IMG/VR virus record: IMGVR_UViG_3300037067_011375
Span: 62,001-126,000 of that record
From: an uncultured virus (IMG/VR IMGVR_UViG_3300037067_011375)
Taxonomy: Duplodnaviria; Heunggongvirae; Uroviricota; Caudoviricetes
Length of the DNA stretch: 64,000 nt
Strand: one strand, 5' to 3'
Part shown: one piece after another, positions 29,703 to 62,290 of the stretch
Layout of the letters: each line of letters opens with the position of its first letter
How positions within the stretch are numbered: position 1 is the first letter of the stretch
Translations under genes and position numbers: made by a program
Notes under the pieces: model-generated
Databases searched by the model: none
Seen by the model: the letters and a program-made list of their open reading frames with translations, nothing else
What the model was told of the DNA's origin: nothing

Positions 29703-29891
29703 ATGGCACTGCAGGTTTCACCGGAACAGCCCAGAACTGTCTGCAGTTGGTGTCGGTGTGTCCTGGACGGTCGCGGGCCTGTTCAACCCGAAGAGGTCGC
29801 AACCCTAAGCCACGGGATTTGCCGCCCGTGCGAAGCAAGATACTTCGGCAATCTACCACAGGAGTCACAAAATGAATCTACAGGATTTTAA
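29703..29891 (+). CDS. Small zinc-binding protein
   Basis: 'VCSWC...SHGICRPC'. Confidence 0.65.
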   Translation: MALQVSPEQPRTVCSWCRCVLDGRGPVQPEEVATLSHGICRPCEARYFGNLPQESQNESTGF

Positions 29892-30972
29892 CCGTGATCT
29901 TGGCAAGTTGACCGACCGCACCGCTGACCCCACCGAGGCGGTCCAGCGGGTGCTCGCGTCATTCGCGGCCGACGCGATGGGCCGCAACCCAGACGTCGAC
30001 GACGACGGCGAGACCGCAATGGATTTTGTCAGTTTCATGATGGTGTTGCTTCAGAGCGACGCCGTCATCAATCTCCCGACGTACCGGCGCCGGCGGGTCG
30101 CGACCGTCAATCCCGACGAGATCGTGGTGTCGGCGGCCAACCGGCACGGCCGCGTCCTGGGGCTTACGTCAAACCAGCACGTCTGGTCCATGGGGGTCAA
30201 CATCAACGACGCCAACGTCATGACCGCCACGACCGTTGGGGCATCCAGGACTTTCCTGTTCCAGGACATCACGGGTGAGTGGTACGACGAGTGGAGCGGA
30301 ATCGACTTCCGGACCGACAACTTCCCCGAGAAGCTCCGGACCGCGTTCGCGGCCAGTGAGATCAAGTTCACCGAGATGGTGTCGAGAAACCGCGGGGCTG
30401 GTGTCTACGGGCGCCGTTTCATCCTGGCCAAGGCGGCGATCACCCGGCTGGCTGACCGCGACAAATTCCTCAAGGCCGAGGCCAAGCGGTTGGCTCCCCC
30501 GGTGGACCCCATGGCACCCAAGGCTCCGTGGTCAGGGTCCAAGAAGGTCGGGACTGGCGAGAAGGTCAAGGTCTGGGCGTTCAACTGCTTCGTGGATACC
30601 TCGCTGACCGGCGACTACACCCCGATGGGGTCGCTCGAGGAGGTCCAGCGGGAACGCCACCGACTCCGCCAGAACATCCAGACCCTCCGGTTTTGCACCA
30701 GGGCCACGGAGTTCGGGTTCTGGAAGGACCACATCGGTACCACCATCGGGCACGAGGACGCTGATCTGCTCGGTTGGCTCAAGGGCGGCGACCCCACTGC
30801 CCTGAAGGTACCGGCTTGGTGTCCGGGCGAGTGGACCACGGGGGTCAAGGCCCCTGGGGCCAAAACATTCTTCGCAGCTCTGCGGCGTCCCGATGCCCCC
30901 ACGGTTCGGTGGCGGGCTTGGCGCCAGACCGAGGAAGTCGCAGCCCCCATGGACGACAGCACCGGCGAGTAA
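29872..30972 (+). CDS. Hypothetical early protein
   Basis: AGGAG RBS; strong GC3 codon bias. Confidence 0.7.
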   Translation: MNLQDFNRDLGKLTDRTADPTEAVQRVLASFAADAMGRNPDVDDDGETAMDFVSFMMVLLQSDAVINLPTYRRRRVATVNPDEIVVSAANRHGRVLGLTSNQHVWSMGVNINDANVMTATTVGASRTFLFQDITGEWYDEWSGIDFRTDNFPEKLRTAFAASEIKFTEMVSRNRGAGVYGRRFILAKAAITRLADRDKFLKAEAKRLAPPVDPMAPKAPWSGSKKVGTGEKVKVWAFNCFVDTSLTGDYTPMGSLEEVQRERHRLRQNIQTLRFCTRATEFGFWKDHIGTTIGHEDADLLGWLKGGDPTALKVPAWCPGEWTTGVKAPGAKTFFAALRRPDAPTVRWRAWRQTEEVAAPMDDSTGE

Positions 30973-32043: not shown

Positions 32044-32175
32044 CGCTTGCTCACTCCCCAAGACATTGCCCAGCGGATTCAGCAGCATGACCTGAACAGA
32101 GCCCGCCGCAAGTCGCGGGGCTTCAGCCCCGGCGAATAGGCGCGGCTTTTCTTCGGCTTCAGCCAGAAATAGGTC

Positions 32176-32204
32176 TTGACAGCACTGTCTACAGGCACTA
32201 TAGT
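32176..32204 (+). promoter_or_regulatory. sigma70 promoter inside the IS left end, overlapped by GTCTAC/GTAGAC boxes
   Basis: TTGACA-17-TATAGT; the inverted pair CTGTCTACA/TGTAGACAG spans the -10 element. Confidence 0.75.
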
Positions 32205-32245
32205 GTAGACAGGACGGTAGACACAAAGGAGAAATAAATGAGAAC
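32205..32245 (+). repeat. ~41-bp gene-leader repeat, copy 1
   Basis: GTAGACAGGACGGTAGACACAAAGGAGAAATAAATGAGAAC. Confidence 0.9.
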
Positions 32246-32618
32246 TTTATACGTCGTGCTTGGTTTTGCTGCGCTAACGTTTGTGGGTTGTGGTAAGAGT
32301 CCTGAGGCGAGAAGGGAAGAGCTGATTAGTCTAGTAGAACGTAAGGTCCAGCATGACCTGCCCTATGAAGACCACAGCACCAGAATTGTTCATGCAAAAA
32401 TTAGCGATCCTTACCTATGTGTCTATGTAAATGCAGCAGGAGATCCGCTAGCCAGATACGCAAGCAGCTTTGCTCAAGAACAGGACGTATTGGGCGCGGC
32501 AAAGCAAGTTGGCCTTACTACGATCGTGATCCACAACGGTCTTAGATCTAATGAAATCGACACGGTAACCGGAACGTCTCAGATGCGTACTGATGCTCTA
32601 CCCAGCGGATGCAAGTAG
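32238..32618 (+). CDS. Putative lipoprotein (IS passenger 1)
   Basis: MRTLYVVLGFAALTFVGC lipobox; AAGGAG RBS. Confidence 0.75.
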   Translation: MRTLYVVLGFAALTFVGCGKSPEARREELISLVERKVQHDLPYEDHSTRIVHAKISDPYLCVYVNAAGDPLARYASSFAQEQDVLGAAKQVGLTTIVIHNGLRSNEIDTVTGTSQMRTDALPSGCK

Positions 32619-32655
32619 ACAGGACAGTAGACATAAAGGAGGAATAAATGAGAAC
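32615..32655 (+). repeat. ~41-bp gene-leader repeat, copy 2
   Basis: GTAGACAGGACAGTAGACATAAAGGAGGAATAAATGAGAAC; 3 mismatches to copy 1; supplies the TAG stop of passenger 1. Confidence 0.9.
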
Positions 32656-33244
32656 ATTAGGTTTTACCTTGTTTTGTCTGTGCTGCCTATCTTGTAAACA
32701 GGAGAGTCAATCTGCCGAGAAAGCGGAAACTGCTGATGCTGTTGCTCCGACGTGGCAGGAACAAGAAGCACAACGGGATCAGCAAAATCCGCTTGCTTCC
32801 GCGGCCTCGATCTACCGTGAGCTAGTTGACGCCTACGCGGTGTTGTCTGGCAAGGAAGAGTGCGTGCCCTGCACGCAACTGGTGCAACAGGAGCGTCGTG
32901 CTCAGCAAGTTCAACGCGGCGGCACTGACGAGCACCGACGCACAGCTTACAGCATCAAGAGTGCGGCCATCAAAGAATGTTGGGGGCATTTTGACGGTTA
33001 TGAAACCACACGGTTCGATCGCTACCACGAGCGCGTAGGGCGTTTTTCACCAGGTCAACACCAGGTTCTTTATCGACTCTTACAGAAGGGTTTGGTGCTA
33101 TTACGGCCATGTCGAGCTAAATTATGCCATTTGGCCAAAGACAATATTAGGCGCGAGGCTGAAGGTAAATGTAATGCACTGGGCGTAGTGCTGCTCGCCG
33201 TAGAAAAGGCGCTCAAGCAAGCCGGTGCATTCAAAGAGGAATAG
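32648..33244 (+). CDS. Putative lipoprotein (IS passenger 2)
   Basis: MRTLGFTLFCLCCLSC lipobox; AAGGAGG RBS. Confidence 0.75.
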   Translation: MRTLGFTLFCLCCLSCKQESQSAEKAETADAVAPTWQEQEAQRDQQNPLASAASIYRELVDAYAVLSGKEECVPCTQLVQQERRAQQVQRGGTDEHRRTAYSIKSAAIKECWGHFDGYETTRFDRYHERVGRFSPGQHQVLYRLLQKGLVLLRPCRAKLCHLAKDNIRREAEGKCNALGVVLLAVEKALKQAGAFKEE

Positions 33245-33258
33245 GGCCGGTACTCGCC

Positions 33259-33660
33259 ATGGCTAACGCGATGGAATACCAGCGAGACGAGCACCGGGTC
33301 CACTTGATCGTGTACCACTTGATCTGGGTGCCCCGACGCCGTAAAGCCGTGTTGATCGGTGCCGTCGCCCAGGACTGCAAGGCACTGATCGAGCGTAAGT
33401 GCGCGGAGCAGGGCTGGACCATCCTGGAGTTGGCCATTGACCCCGACCACATTCACCTTTTCGTGCGGGCCTGGCCTACCGTGTCGGCCGCCGAGATTAT
33501 ACAGAAGTGCAAGGGGTTGACTAGCCACGAGCTTAGAAAGCGACATCCCCAGCTCTTGAAACTGCCGTCACTGTGGACCAGGTCCTACTTTGCCTCCACG
33601 GCCGGTAATGTGTCGAGCGAAACCATCCAACGGTATATCGCGGCTCAGCGTAAATTCTGA
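33259..33660 (+). CDS. tnpA: IS200/IS605 Y1 (HUH) transposase
   Basis: 'YHLIWVPRRRK', HUH motif 'DHIHLF', 'LWTRSYF', catalytic Tyr in 'IQRYI'. Confidence 0.95.
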   Translation: MANAMEYQRDEHRVHLIVYHLIWVPRRRKAVLIGAVAQDCKALIERKCAEQGWTILELAIDPDHIHLFVRAWPTVSAAEIIQKCKGLTSHELRKRHPQLLKLPSLWTRSYFASTAGNVSSETIQRYIAAQRKF

Positions 33661-34808
33661 TGTTAAAGACCTTCCGCTACCGTCTCTACCCCAGCAAGGC
33701 CCAGGCCAAACGCCTGGCCTCGACGCTGGAGACGTGCCGCCGGGTCTACAACGACTGCTTGGCCGAGCGGAAAGTGGCCTACGAGACCGAAGGCAAGACC
33801 ATCGGGAAGTTCGAGCAGCTCCGTCACGTCAAGGAGATCAAAGCGACCAACCCCTATGCCAAAGGAGTCCACAGCCACGTCCTCCAGGTCACGATCTCGG
33901 ACCTGGATAAAGCGTTCCAAGCATTTTTCCGTAGGGTCAAGCAGGGCGAAAAGCCCGGCTACCCTAGGTTCAAGGGGCGGGATCGTTTTGACTCGTTCGG
34001 GCTGAAAGAACTGGGCAACGGATTTAAGGTGGACGGCCGACGGCTGAAGATCTCTGGTGTCGGAAGGATCGCGGTCAGGTGGCACCGGGAACTGGAAGGC
34101 AAGGTCAAGACTATCCGGTTGGTCCGGGCCGCGGGCCATTGGTTTGCATGTTTCTCCTGTGAGGTTGCTGTGCAGCCACCGCTGCCCGCGACGGGCAAGA
34201 GCGTTGGGCTTGACGTTGGTATCGAGAGCATCTTGACCACCAGCGATGGCGACAAGGTAGAGAACCCTAGGTGGTACCGTGGCGACCAAGCCAAGCTCAG
34301 GGTGGTGCAACGTAGGGTGTCCAGACGAAAGAAAGGGAGCAGGCGTCGGCGTAAAGCCATCAAGATGCTCCAACGGCACCACGAAAGAACCAAAAATCGG
34401 CGAAAGGATTTTTTGGACAAGTTGGCTTGCACGTTGATCACAACTAACGACGTCATCGCGATCGAAGACTTGCAGGTCACCAATATGGTCAGGAACCACC
34501 ACCTGGCCAAGAGCATCATGGACGCATCCTGGGGCTATCTGCGGCAACGACTTGAAGCCAAAGCGGCAGAAGCTGGACGGCAAGTCATCGCGGTACCCCC
34601 GGCCTACACGTCCAAATCTTGCTCGGGTTGTGGCGCTATTTTTGAGGATCTGAAATTAAGCACCAGATGGGTCAAGTGCTGCTGTGGTTTGTCTCTGGAC
34701 CGCGACCACAACGCTGCCGTCAACATTCTTAGGAGGGGACACCTCCTTCGGGAGTCAACGTGGGCCGCTCAAGAGCCGTGCGTATCCCGAGAAGCCGCTG
34801 GGCTTTAG
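33660..34808 (+). CDS. tnpB: RNA-guided endonuclease TnpB
   Basis: 'FRYRLYP', 'GLDVG', 'IEDL', 'TSKSCSGCG', 'DRDHNAAVN'. Confidence 0.95.
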   Translation: MLKTFRYRLYPSKAQAKRLASTLETCRRVYNDCLAERKVAYETEGKTIGKFEQLRHVKEIKATNPYAKGVHSHVLQVTISDLDKAFQAFFRRVKQGEKPGYPRFKGRDRFDSFGLKELGNGFKVDGRRLKISGVGRIAVRWHRELEGKVKTIRLVRAAGHWFACFSCEVAVQPPLPATGKSVGLDVGIESILTTSDGDKVENPRWYRGDQAKLRVVQRRVSRRKKGSRRRRKAIKMLQRHHERTKNRRKDFLDKLACTLITTNDVIAIEDLQVTNMVRNHHLAKSIMDASWGYLRQRLEAKAAEAGRQVIAVPPAYTSKSCSGCGAIFEDLKLSTRWVKCCCGLSLDRDHNAAVNILRRGHLLRESTWAAQEPCVSREAAGL

Positions 34809-35231
34809 CCCATGCGGAGTGTCACCGAGAGTACCAAACCACTATCATGTGGGCGTTGCTTGACGCGGTCGCGGACGCACATCAGTATGCCGATGTCCAG
34901 TTGGTCGAGACCCCCTGGACCCTCGTGGCCGACGTCGTGGCCTACGGAGTTCAAGGTAAATCCCCTGCCCTGACGACAGCGGCAATTCAATGTCTGGAGC
35001 AGGGATTCGCCGCCGTGGGCACCAAGGCCAGTATTTTATACGACTTGGCTGGTGACGGCAGCACCTGTTGTGTCGTGGATCCAGAAGTTCATGACCCCGA
35101 AAAGGTCGTGGCCAGGATGAAAGCCCCGGTGGTCAGGTATCAAGGCCGGATTTTTATTCGCCGTTAGTCCACGAAACTAAAACAGAATCCTGGGGCACGG
35201 CAAAATAAATCCATTTTTCTGTAAAAAAGAG

Positions 35232-35317: not shown

Positions 35318-36130
35318 ATGCCCAGCAAGAAGATCGATGGTATCACCCGCAACGATTTCTTCTACGTGGAGACCAAGTTCGTCCGGGTGGAGCCCGGGTT
35401 CAACGGAAGGATCACCACGACCGACAACGGAGTCGCCCCCGACGACGACCTCGCCGACCTGGAGTCGATCCGGGAGCACGGGGTCCTGGTGCCGCTCATG
35501 GTGCGGCCCGACCCCGAGGGGATCACCAAGTACGTGGTGATCGAGGGGCACCGGCGGCTCGCCAAGGTGCTGCTGCTGAACGCGAACGGCTGCGACATCC
35601 GGGTGCCCGTCATCGTCGAGCACGTCAACGAGCAGGACGCCGCCGCCATGATGGCGATGGCGGGGCTCCAGCGCAAGAACTTCTCGTTCGCCGAGGAGGT
35701 CAACATCGTCCGGAAGTTCGCCCGGTGGGGCCTGTCCCCGGCCGAGACGGCCAAGAAGATCGGGATGCCGGTGGAGTGGGTGCGGCAGCACCTCGCGGTT
35801 TCCGCCGCCCCCGAGTCCGTCCTGGCGGCCGTGGCCTCCGGGGCCATGCCGGCCGACGTGGCGGTCAAGATCGCGAACCTCTCGGCCCGGGATGTCAAGA
35901 AGGTCGTGGACGCGGCCCAGAAGGGCCGGGGCTGCGCCCGCAAGGCCTCAGAGAAGGTGACCGGCAAGGCCGCGCGGCCCGGCAAGAAGGTGGTGGTGTC
36001 CATGAAGACCCTGCTGGCCGAGACCAAGCGGAACCGGAGCCCCCGGGTGAACCGCTGGATCGAGACCTGCCTGGACTTCGCGGCCGGGATGGTCCCGGCC
36101 GACGACCTGGCCGACATGCTCCGTCGCTAG
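35318..36130 (+). CDS. ParB/Spo0J-like protein
   Basis: 'SIREHGVLVPLMVR...VIEGHRRL' ParB-N box followed by an HTH ('SPAETAKKIGMPVEWVRQHL'). Confidence 0.85.
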   Translation: MPSKKIDGITRNDFFYVETKFVRVEPGFNGRITTTDNGVAPDDDLADLESIREHGVLVPLMVRPDPEGITKYVVIEGHRRLAKVLLLNANGCDIRVPVIVEHVNEQDAAAMMAMAGLQRKNFSFAEEVNIVRKFARWGLSPAETAKKIGMPVEWVRQHLAVSAAPESVLAAVASGAMPADVAVKIANLSARDVKKVVDAAQKGRGCARKASEKVTGKAARPGKKVVVSMKTLLAETKRNRSPRVNRWIETCLDFAAGMVPADDLADMLRR

Positions 36131-36215: not shown

Positions 36216-36359
36216 ATGAAGACTGCTACCAGCTTCCGCCTGTCCAAGCGGGCCCATGAAATCTTGGCCATCCTGGCTGAACAGAAGGGCGTCAGCAGGA
36301 CCGCCATCATAGAGATCGCGTTGCGTGAATTGATCACACGGGAAAAGTCCAGTGGGTAG
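36216..36359 (+). CDS. CopG-like ribbon-helix-helix protein (47 aa, absent from the ORF track)
   Basis: MKTATSFRLSKRAHEILAILAEQKGVSRTAIIEIALRELITREKSSG*; overlaps the tnpB start. Confidence 0.8.
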   Translation: MKTATSFRLSKRAHEILAILAEQKGVSRTAIIEIALRELITREKSSG

Positions 36360-37872
36360 AGCCACAACCCCCACGTTCATCGCGGAGTTTCCCTTGGTCA
36401 CGACTCCTGATCAGGAGCGTGAACTTGCCATCAGGATGGAGATGGCCCGGCAGATCTACAACGCTGCCTTGGAAGAATCCCTCAGGATCCTGGATCTCAT
36501 GCGGGAGTCTCGGGCGTGGAAGCAGGCACGGAAGTTGAAGGGGAAAGATAGGACCGCGGCGTTCAAAGCAGCGGTTCAATCTTTTGGGTTCAACATCGGC
36601 ACAATCTATTTGTTTACGAAAACCTGCCGTAAGTCTTGCTGTATTCAAGACCATGTGGGAGCGGTGGAGGCACAAACCCTGAGTGACCGAGCGTTCAGCG
36701 CAGTTCAGCGCTATGGTTTCGGGAAGCAGGGTAGACCACGGTTCAAGGGTTACGGTAGACTTCATAGTGTTGAGGGAAAGAGCAACAAATGTGCCATTAT
36801 GTTGCGGGGCAACCAAATCCTGTGGATAGGGTTGACCCTGTCCTTAATGCTGGACCCCAAGTCAAACGAATGGCAAACCCAGGCGCTGGCCTGCAGGACC
36901 AAGTATTGCCGCATTGTTCGTCGGCGCATCAAAGGTCAGGATCGTTGGTTCTGCCAGTTGGTACAAGAAGGGCGTCCTCCCCAGGTTCATCAGGTAGGTG
37001 AAGGTTCCGTGGGGCTGGACATCGGGCCCAGCACGATCGCTGTTGTCAGCGACTCCGCCGCTAAAGTCCAGCAGTTTTGCCCGACGGTTCAAGAACCTTG
37101 GGCCGAGACCAGGGTGATCCAGCGGGCTCTGCGTAGAAGCAGAAAGGCTACAAATCCTAATCGGTACAACTCAGACGGCACGTATCAACGAGGACGCGGC
37201 CACTGGACCAAATCCACGCGGTATCGGAAATTACAGGTCAGATTGGTAGAACAGCAGCGAAAACTCTCTGCAGAGCGGCGTAGGGCACACGGCCAACTCT
37301 GCAACGAGATCTTGGCCCAAGGAAAGGAACTCAAAACCGAAAACATAAGCTATTTGGCTTTTCAAAAGAATTTTGGCCGAAGCATGAAAGTCCGGGCTCC
37401 TGGGATGTTCATGGCGCTGCTGACCCGCAAAGCCGAAAATGCTGGCGGGTCCATCACGTTGATCACGCCCAGGACCACAAAGTTGTCCCAGTACGACCAC
37501 ACTGTGGATCGGTACATCAAGAAACCATTGTCCCAAAGGATCCATTGCTTTGGCGACGGTGTTACTAAACCGGTTCAACGTGATCTTTACAGTGCTTTTC
37601 TGGCCAAACATTGTTCCAAGGATAACTTGGATGTCCGTCAGGTCCAACTGGCCTGGCCGGCTGCGAAACCGCTGCTGCGACGGGCGACATCCAAGTGGAA
37701 AGAATCTGCGAGCAGGAAGGCTTCGGCCATTCCTCACGATCATGATCGTCAGAGCGGATCGTCCGTCAAAGCCGACCCAGACCACGACGAGGCCCGGGAT
37801 GTTGTAGTGAGGACACCAGACTCACGAGAGCCCGGGAGAGCTGCGGTTAGGAAAGCAGAATCTCATGTTTAG
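36352..37872 (+). CDS. tnpB: Long (506 aa) TnpB-family nuclease lacking the canonical zinc-ribbon cysteines
   Basis: 'GRPRFKG', RuvC 'GLDIG', 'KTEN', 'QRDLYSA'; an RE-like hairpin at 37862-37879. Confidence 0.85.
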   Translation: MGRATTPTFIAEFPLVTTPDQERELAIRMEMARQIYNAALEESLRILDLMRESRAWKQARKLKGKDRTAAFKAAVQSFGFNIGTIYLFTKTCRKSCCIQDHVGAVEAQTLSDRAFSAVQRYGFGKQGRPRFKGYGRLHSVEGKSNKCAIMLRGNQILWIGLTLSLMLDPKSNEWQTQALACRTKYCRIVRRRIKGQDRWFCQLVQEGRPPQVHQVGEGSVGLDIGPSTIAVVSDSAAKVQQFCPTVQEPWAETRVIQRALRRSRKATNPNRYNSDGTYQRGRGHWTKSTRYRKLQVRLVEQQRKLSAERRRAHGQLCNEILAQGKELKTENISYLAFQKNFGRSMKVRAPGMFMALLTRKAENAGGSITLITPRTTKLSQYDHTVDRYIKKPLSQRIHCFGDGVTKPVQRDLYSAFLAKHCSKDNLDVRQVQLAWPAAKPLLRRATSKWKESASRKASAIPHDHDRQSGSSVKADPDHDEARDVVVRTPDSREPGRAAVRKAESHV

Positions 37873-61511: not shown

Positions 61512-62290
61512 TTGTGCGTGGGGACGTGTGGGAGCCTGGCAAGTCAGTGCCCCGCATCGTCGAGATCGATTCTGGCTCATCGGAAATCGTGAGTGCCCAG
61601 AGTAATGTCAGGGTTCCTTGGCCAACCCCCATGGTCACGGATGCTAAAAACAAAGGTGGAAAAGGGCAACTACGCCGTAAGTATCCACCGCTCAATGCCG
61701 TCGTCGGGATTGAGCGGTCCAGCAAGGCTACCGAGGCGTTGGCCTGGCCAACGCCTCAGTCCCGAGACTACAAAGGGGCACCAGGAAAGGGCTGTGTTGA
61801 GCGTGGCGGACACCAGTCAAGTTTACCAATGAAGATTGGGCAAGTCACCGAGGCGTTGGCCTGGCCAACGCCTCGGTCCTGTACCGCCACGGCCGCCACC
61901 ATCACGGAGCAGGCACAACAATGTGCTGCTGACCGTTTCCCTAATCTGGAAACCGTGATGGTCCAGCGGGAACATGGGGCAGTCGGGGGTGCCTTGAATC
62001 CAGCATGGGTGGAGTGGCTCATGAACTGGCCCGTGGGTTGGACCAACCTGAAACCTATCCGGGGATTTAACCGCTGGCGTCGCAAAACCATGGAATCCTC
62101 CTGGTGGGCCCGAGATCCAGCCGACGAACCCGATACCAAGGTGCCGCGCATATCCGTGGGGAAACTGCACCGAGTTGACCGACTCAAGGCCATCGGGAAC
62201 GGTCAAGTGCCCCTCTGCTGTGCCTTGGCATTCCTGACGCTCCAGCGGGAGTTACTGACATTTTTGAAAAATCACCCTTCCGGTCGGTAA
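61058..62290 (+). CDS. C5 DNA cytosine methyltransferase; as sequenced, an alpha/beta chimera created by a 1-nt frameshift at ~61505
   Basis: Motif I 'LFAGAGG', IV 'GGFPCQD', VI 'VEN' and X 'LKAIGNG'; motif VIII 'APHRRDRFW' lies in the -1 frame after 61506. Confidence 0.85.
   Translation: MVHHTAVNAAVPSGLREIALFAGAGGGILGGHLLGWKTVCAVEITPYAREVLFARQADGTLEPFPVWDDIRTFDGRAWRGYCDVVSGGFPCQDVSSAGKGAGIDGERSGLWGEMARVIGEVQPRWVWVENSPLLVSRGLVRVVRDLTTLGIVVRGDVWEPGKSVPRIVEIDSGSSEIVSAQSNVRVPWPTPMVTDAKNKGGKGQLRRKYPPLNAVVGIERSSKATEALAWPTPQSRDYKGAPGKGCVERGGHQSSLPMKIGQVTEALAWPTPRSCTATAATITEQAQQCAADRFPNLETVMVQREHGAVGGALNPAWVEWLMNWPVGWTNLKPIRGFNRWRRKTMESSWWARDPADEPDTKVPRISVGKLHRVDRLKAIGNGQVPLCCALAFLTLQRELLTFLKNHPSGR
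61730..61875 (+). repeat. 28-bp direct repeat encoding 'TEALAWPTP'
   Basis: ACCGAGGCGTTGGCCTGGCCAACGCCTC at 61730 and 61848. Confidence 0.85.

Follow-up and report, generated by a model that had tools for sequence, protein, structure and literature searches.

We analysed the region around two small genes, lipo1 and lipo2, in a 64,000-nucleotide stretch of DNA from an uncultured virus of the Caudoviricetes (positions 62,001 to 126,000 of IMG/VR record IMGVR_UViG_3300037067_011375; the whole stretch is here called the window). The virus record from which the window is taken measures 132 kb and has a CheckV completeness of 49%. Each of the two genes starts with a copy of the same short leader, and the element around the leader copies is an insertion sequence (IS) of the IS200/IS605 family (IS605-type), which occupies about 32092-34825 in an intergenic spot of the phage genome. 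Our preferred reading, to which we assign a probability of roughly 0.7, is that the repeat is the promoter-proximal leader of the transposase gene (tnpA) of an IS that acquired two foreign genes for exported proteins, and that the second leader copy came from ordinary recombination. The element ends, the position of the cargo inside them, the single promoter and the family-wide architecture of the leader were observed directly. The features of the locus are as follows.

32087..32091, + strand: target sequence ATGAC; the IS starts directly after it, and relatives have (A/T)TGAC just before their left ends
32092..32175, + strand: left end (LE) of the IS, a compound hairpin, a T-run and a second small hairpin, matched by an nhmmer LE profile
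32176..32204, + strand: sigma-70-type promoter TTGACA-17-TATAGT (11/12 to consensus), its spacer containing the inverted box TGTCTAC (32186-32192)
32205..32249, + strand: leader copy 1, with two boxes, AAGGAGA and ATGAGAAC, in the native position of a tnpA leader; the same architecture precedes tnpA in relatives
32238..32618, + strand: cargo gene 1 (lipo1), 126 amino acids (aa), a signal peptide ending FVGC and a predicted alpha+beta domain of no known family
32615..32659, + strand: leader copy 2, with two boxes, AAGGAGG and ATGAGAAC; its first TAG is the lipo1 stop codon
32648..33244, + strand: cargo gene 2 (lipo2), 198 aa, a signal peptide with Cys and a Cys-rich domain predicted to be all-helical, of no known family
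33259..33660, + strand: tnpA, Y1 HUH transposase (PF01797, E 1.7e-34; phrog_2577, E 1.3e-41)
33660..34808, + strand: tnpB, RNA-guided nuclease family gene (PF12323, PF01385, PF07282; phrog_506, E 9e-118)
34795..34825, + strand: right end (RE) of the IS, an imperfect palindrome CCGCTGGGC-TTTA-GCCCATGCGG followed by AGTGTCAC as the last bases

The insertion sequence and its limits

The element has the make-up of its family. It encodes a Y1 TnpA, with TnpB downstream of tnpA; its left and right ends bear subterminal imperfect palindromes that lie on one strand, and there are no terminal inverted repeats. It is inserted 3' of a short specific target, its ends having been set by copies in other sequence contexts. 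The LE comprises an imperfect palindrome at 32113-32135 with the loop TTCA, a T-run and the small hairpin GGCTTCAGCC at 32155-32164. The RE (...GCGGAGTGTCAC) stops at 34825, as it does in relatives, whose ends read GGAGTGTCAC; all inspected REs close with a GTCAC-type sequence. Metagenome contigs of related copies from four runs break from the window upstream of 32099/32100 and right after 34825, and these junction-defining copies are relatives with other flanks rather than the exact cargo-bearing element. Further metagenome contigs support both junctions between phage and IS.

The position of the two cargo genes was settled with an LE profile built from 23 relatives after removal of the 45 nt next to tnpA. 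The gap between lipo2 and the annotated tnpA is 14 nt, and the left end of the IS must therefore lie either inside lipo2 or upstream of both cargo genes. The profile matched 32077-32174 (E 3.2e-16) and also the right-end hairpin at 34792-34818 (E 0.003), with no match directly upstream of tnpA. Thus lipo1 and lipo2 lie inside the IS, between the LE promoter and tnpA. A preliminary description of this DNA had placed the genes inside a transposon and behind a left-end promoter, and both statements held: the LE at 32092-32175 and the RE reaching to 34825 enclose the two genes, and the promoter at 32176-32204 precedes them. Judged by its sequence, the cargo-bearing IS looks intact.

The true start of tnpA is probably the ATG at 33271 (MEYQRDEH) rather than 33259, since TnpA of relatives begins MEYQRDEH. 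A related IS copy in run X5 departs from the window sequence just upstream of 33261. Among the matches listed, TnpB relatives in metagenomes reached 87-88% identity. Two short repeats at the left boundary were also noted. An exact 12-mer, CAGCATGACCTG, occurs at 32083-32094, across the target and the first bases of the IS, and again at 32349-32360 in lipo1 (chance expectation about 0.05); CCCAGCGGAT(T/G)CA, a 12/13 match, occurs at 32069-32081 and at 32601-32613, the latter also in lipo1 (chance expectation about 0.5). Both are possibly coincidence.

The leader repeat and its promoter

A degenerate 41-mer pattern of the leader had exactly two matches in the window, at 32205-32245 and 32615-32655, each with 0 mismatches to the pattern, while none of 100 dinucleotide shuffles contained two. 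The two copies are identical at 38/41 positions, and a repeat search extended the pair to 45 nt (91% identity, spacing 410). The repeat of about 41 bp before both genes that had been described earlier was thus borne out, as was its content. Each copy reads GTAGACA, 5 nt, GTAGACA, AAGGAG(A/G)AATAA and ATGAGAAC, placing two boxes 12 nt apart in front of a Shine-Dalgarno sequence (AAGGAGA in copy 1, AAGGAGG in copy 2) and the first codons; both open reading frames (ORFs) begin MRTL. All three differences between the copies are transitions that fall outside the box 7-mers, and both boxes are intact in copy 2. The further statement that the first TAG of the repeat is the stop codon of the upstream gene applies to copy 2, where it ends the ORF 32238-32618, but not to copy 1, which has no gene upstream. 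A metagenome contig (run X5, record 20, 32525-32738) spans lipo1, leader copy 2 and lipo2 without differences.

The leader showed neither a hairpin nor an internal palindrome, and its folding (z-scores of +0.84 and -1.40) was not different from that of shuffles; Rfam gave no leader match at E<=1. Outside the IS, the window contains GTAGACA at 7 sites; about 3.9 would be expected over its full length, and there is no clear enrichment.

Between the LE and tnpA there is only one promoter-like site on the + strand, the 11/12 site at 32176-32204, and leader copy 1 starts directly after its -10 hexamer. No terminator-like site was found on the + strand between 32238 and 33258. The preliminary description had missed a third, inverted box (TGTCTAC, 32186-32192) in the promoter spacer. 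Together with box 1 it forms a 9/9 inverted repeat (32185-32193 / 32204-32212) flanking the -10.

The relatives show the same order upstream of tnpA. In them, (A/T)TGAC is followed by a compound hairpin CCCGCCGCAAG...TAGGCGGG with a T-run and by a small hairpin GGCTTTAGCC. Next comes the promoter, whose spacer between the -35 and -10 hexamers contains a 7-nt box; the box recurs in inverted orientation after the -10, and tnpA starts with MEYQRDEH. In many of them an extra box lies 12 nt further on, followed by a Shine-Dalgarno sequence before tnpA. Window positions 32087-32237 repeat this order from LE to leader exactly. Since tnpA is preceded by this layout throughout the relatives, the leader is the IS's own tnpA leader. 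In several relatives the tnpA start stands immediately after box 1, an arrangement that suggests a leaderless message.

The arrangement of the boxes recurs in the family at a rate above that of shuffled sequence. For 10/23 leaders, no more than 2/40 shuffles gave an inverted repeat around a -10-like hexamer as good as the real one. A 7-mer repeat at a 12-nt offset (at least 6/7) was present in 18/45 leader segments, the 18 including the window's own two copies and the one of L132, a phage-borne relative described below; other offsets from 8 to 16 gave 1-5 segments, and 200 shuffles gave 1.8 on average and 6 at most. The box sequence itself varies among relatives (ATCAACA, ATCGACA, ATCTACA, GTAGACA), its arms remaining complementary, and in at least one relative, L056, the polarity of the arms is reversed with complementarity kept. 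The array is roughly symmetric about the -10 and overlaps the -35 in some relatives, for example as TGTTGAC-N5-TGTNGAT ... -10 ... ATCNACA (L021-L135; window 32173-32223).

A symmetric, 12-nt-phased array around a promoter looks like a putative operator, and the boxes could be candidate binding sites for a repressor of the IS, the phage or the host, with copy 2 kept as a second operator, for instance for looping. This explanation is compatible with the origin that we favour, and we regard it as possible but not probable. It would account for boxes that are palindromic about the -10, recur with a 12-nt period in many relatives and in some cover the -35, and for a copy 2 whose three differences spare both boxes. 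According to a preprint (bioRxiv 10.64898/2026.09.24.754181), Arc repressors of the ribbon-helix-helix (RHH) type bind oppositely oriented -35/-10 motifs of IS605 promoters. However, there is no arc-like or other regulator gene within 32092-34825, and the differences in box sequence among relatives argue against a common host factor. The flipped polarity of L056 suits base pairing as well as protein binding; a single-strand hairpin would fit the co-varying arms equally well.

The Arc-regulated IS605 elements of the preprint are otherwise similar in having an accessory gene inside an IS605 and repeated, opposed motifs over the -35 and -10. The present IS shares the oppositely oriented motifs over its promoter hexamers, in the form of the 9/9 repeat, but has no RHH arc gene inside it, and its accessory genes encode exported proteins instead of regulators.

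A further comparison is offered by another member of the family. IS200 of Salmonella has a terminator hairpin in its left end and a structured tnpA 5' untranslated region. The present LE likewise has a terminator-like hairpin and T-run followed by a tightly organised tnpA leader, but here the palindrome lies around the -10, the ribosome site is uncovered and the leader is predicted to be unstructured.

Related elements and the question of gene capture

Relatives were collected through TnpB and TnpA from the genome_contigs and viral_contigs collections and counted as 44 elements (22 + 8, with L106 dropped as lying on the same contig as L062, + 13 viral + L131-L134 counted once); nine distant TnpA relatives (30-50% identity) stand outside this count. 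In 43/44 the interval from LE to tnpA carries no cargo and leaves no room for a gene. The sole other cargo bearer is L131-L134, four 100%-identical IMG/VR contigs of one phage. In L132 (3290-4468) it is a tnpA-only element of the IS200 type with the same type of LE and the leader TATACT ATCTACA GTTAC ATCAACA AGGAG...ATG. Between this two-box leader and tnpA lie a 98-aa ORF (phrog_16123, E 2e-8) and a 59-aa ORF, the latter preceded by an ordinary intergenic region with no leader copy, and its stop overlapping the tnpA start (TAATG). The slot between leader and tnpA has thus been used repeatedly, the second time in an independent phage-borne element. Three distant matches to an LE-like regular expression, L053, L056 and L069, were considered as cargo arrays and rejected, as unrelated genes or another transposase were found there.

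These observations could be extended to a more ambitious account, which we think unlikely. The stretch from the LE leader to tnpA would be a recurrent cargo slot, filled at least twice independently in phage-borne copies; the phased palindromic boxes would serve as an operator, with a single repressor controlling transposase and cargo together; and copy 2 would be a portable expression adaptor for adding genes by leader-to-leader recombination.

The preliminary description had gone further and suggested that the repeat may serve for recombination or capture, stacking gene cassettes behind the LE promoter as in a miniature integron. Several features agree with such a site: unrelated genes have the same leader at each start, and the leader-tnpA slot is occupied in a second, independent element. 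The cargo is also lower in G+C than the IS (0.47 over 32200-32800, against 0.55-0.60 for tnpA and tnpB and about 0.62 for the upstream phage genes). Moreover, the homologues of the two cargo genes are unlinked. The lipo1-lipo2 pair is not an invariant unit, because lipo2 relatives lie on nine contigs and the lipo1 relative on one.

The distribution of the repeat nevertheless speaks against it. The two-box leader core has no third occurrence in the 132-kb record, and in viral_contigs the leader was found elsewhere only on a second phage contig (L016), which over 6-20 kb matches the window at 99.8-99.95% identity; this contig carries an identical copy, with no difference inside the IS. In genome_contigs (596 Gb) there were 8 single leader matches in unrelated taxa, which equals the calculated chance level for 18 specified bases. 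Occurrence of the repeat at this place only had been named in the preliminary description as a result that would tell against a cassette array; the search of the databases returned just the near-identical contig, and as a general reading the cassette array fails. Counting the genes downstream of the leader led the same way, 43/44 relatives being empty and the other cargo bearer lacking a repeated leader.

Nor is there a machinery to match. No site-specific cassette recombinase of the IntI type lies within 32092-34825, where the genes are lipo1, lipo2, tnpA and tnpB, and the sole recombinase is the Y1 TnpA. Known substrates of Y1 TnpA are hairpins, but the leader has no hairpin or significant fold. 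Neither single-cassette joints (leader to leader), as cassette deletion would leave, nor an empty-site joint were seen in four metagenome runs, in which contigs had a depth of 2-5x and rare forms could escape. An integron array is similar in having a common promoter at one end and promoterless, unrelated genes in the same orientation, each bounded by a repeat. In contrast, the present element has no IntI, no attI and no folded attC-like site, its leader being a direct repeat without internal palindrome. The repeat precedes each gene on its 5' side, with the ribosome site and the start codon inside it, and there are two genes only. No variation between arrays was found; an integron's cassette content differs among platforms, but this leader was found only with the lipo1-lipo2 pair.

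The stretch AAAGAGGAATA at 33233-33243, 15 nt before tnpA, weakly resembles the leader and might be counted as a third copy in favour of a capture site. It agrees at 10/11 positions with the leader's Shine-Dalgarno part and makes up the final codons of lipo2 together with its stop. It may be a leader remnant or may encode an acidic C-terminal tail (K-E-E-stop) of the kind also found in relatives, in which case the match may be fortuitous. As a cassette boundary truncating lipo2 it was rejected, P0125, a homologue of lipo2, also ending a few acidic residues after KQAG. In sum, no support was found for a dedicated gene-capture site, and we judge that explanation very unlikely.

The cargo proteins and the origin of the second leader

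Both cargo products are predicted to be exported and are probably lipoproteins, a label for which we take the Cys at the end of the signal peptide to belong to a lipobox. Neither matched Pfam or PHROG, nor the PDB by Foldseek at E<=0.001, and Atlas feature scores of the two proteins did not exceed 0.83, a level often reached by shuffled proteins. The cargo weakly resembles pilotins of type II secretion (Atlas 0.82; 6i2v with TM 0.37-0.41), which is no more than a lead. One homologue of lipo1 was found (P0002, 61% identity, on 1 contig) and two of lipo2 (P0004, 47% identity, 4 contigs; P0125, 5 contigs), so that the lipo2 family has three members, its own protein included, among 1.84 billion representatives. 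P0004 is absent from viral_contigs. A scan of metagenomes with the lipo2 alignment gave the near-identical phage contig alone among the matches listed, and the lipo1 alignment gave only signal-peptide-level matches in genome_contigs. No contig as long as those encoding P0002 (4,726) and P0004 (12,882) occurred among the 120 TnpB matches listed, which is weak evidence that these homologues do not lie beside a close TnpB.

The preliminary description had judged the two proteins unrelated beyond their signal peptides, and the comparison of their sequences and predicted structures upheld this. The best BLASTP match between them had an E of 3.3, and AlphaFold models gave an alpha+beta fold for lipo1 (pLDDT 81.5) and an all-alpha fold for lipo2 (pLDDT 77.2). 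By the same comparison, the alternative that it had offered becomes highly implausible. In that alternative, a lipoprotein gene would have been duplicated in tandem along with its leader, and the mature part would then have diverged or been replaced. A direct repeat with 410-nt spacing, the common MRTL start and the shared signal-peptide character are what it would predict, but the proteins differ in length (126 against 198 aa), and the homologues of each have no match to the other. Hardly credible is the idea that the 45-nt unit is a small mobile element landing before start codons: there are two copies only, both in one IS, they have no hairpin and no LE or RE signature, and copy 1 is continuous with the promoter and box layout seen before tnpA in relatives.

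The origin that we favour, a tnpA leader duplicated by ordinary recombination, would operate as follows. The LE promoter would drive a single transcript through lipo1, lipo2, tnpA and tnpB, with a predicted start near 32211. Leader copy 1 would supply lipo1 with a ribosome-binding site and start, and copy 2, seen as a DNA duplicate that runs from box 1 to the third or fourth codon, would do the same service for lipo2, each cargo gene being translated from the strong Shine-Dalgarno sequence of its own leader copy. In contrast, tnpA lies 14-26 nt beyond lipo2 and is preceded by nothing better than a distant run of purines; it is probably translated at a low level or through coupling. Rather than by site-specific capture, copy 2 would most likely have arisen when two 5' ends that each bore the leader recombined, homologously or illegitimately, or underwent gene conversion. 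By one route, a leader-lipo2-tnpA element would have taken up a segment with leader and lipo1 in a Campbell-type single crossover; by another, two IS variants would have undergone an unequal exchange. The homologues P0002 and P0004 start MKTF and MKIL; the MRTL start of both window genes fits a homogenisation of the first codons with the leader. Once formed, copy 2 may persist through its translation signals and possibly through shared regulation by the boxes.

Several points weigh against this account. The single operon and its start site are inferred from sequence, the sequencing runs listed as covering the region including none of RNA. P0002 ends ...SGCK like lipo1, which leaves room for an older, conserved junction between lipo1 and the leader. 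Copy 2 keeps box 1, which in copy 1 lies at or before the predicted start site, and therefore selection for translation alone fails to explain the whole duplicated span. Finally, L132 carries cargo without a duplicated leader, so the duplicate is not generally needed for cargo expression.

Compared with the IS200/IS605 elements already known, the present one is alike in its Y1 TnpA and TnpB, its subterminal imperfect palindromes, its lack of terminal inverted repeats and its short specific target. It differs in having two cargo genes between the LE promoter and tnpA, and in the duplication of the tnpA leader before the second of these. According to a 2023 survey (PMC10691335), cargo was formerly not known in IS200 and IS605 and has been seen only on rare occasions. 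In the literature searched there was nothing on a duplicated tnpA leader before cargo genes.

Phages are known to carry morons, extra genes with their own promoter between phage genes. The present cargo is similar, consisting of lower-G+C genes for exported proteins with a strong promoter of their own in a phage genome. Here, however, promoter and vehicle belong to an insertion sequence, so that the cargo could move with the IS.

Some features of the surrounding phage genome were recorded. A second TnpB-like gene (506 aa; phrog_506, E 5e-30) is overlapped at its start by a 47-aa RHH ORF at 36216-36359 (PF01402/RHH_1, with an E of 5e-5 that exceeds the cut-off). The two together span 36216-37872, 1.4 kb downstream of the first IS, and look like an "arc + tnpB" IS605-type element as reported in the 2026 Arc preprint; the promoter of the RHH gene has no GTAGACA box. 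A ParB-like gene (35318-36130) lies between the first IS and this pair. When the window was compared with the second phage contig, L016, all 10 differences of a 20.6-kb stretch fell within 30507-30542 (36 nt), inside the ORF 29872-30972, which is thus the site of a local hypervariable patch.

The two-cargo IS605 with a duplicated leader is a rare cargo arrangement for its family, and the recurrent slot and the box array are the aspects most worth following. Elements of the IS200/IS605 family are regarded as minimal transposons; here, one that looks intact carries two orphan genes for exported proteins under its own strong promoter in a large phage. The element shows one way in which tiny single-strand transposons can carry expressed accessory genes into phages, and it shows that a transposase leader is reusable as a ready-made translation start for foreign genes. 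The conserved, phased box array at the tnpA promoter of this branch of IS may be a counterpart of the Arc operators.

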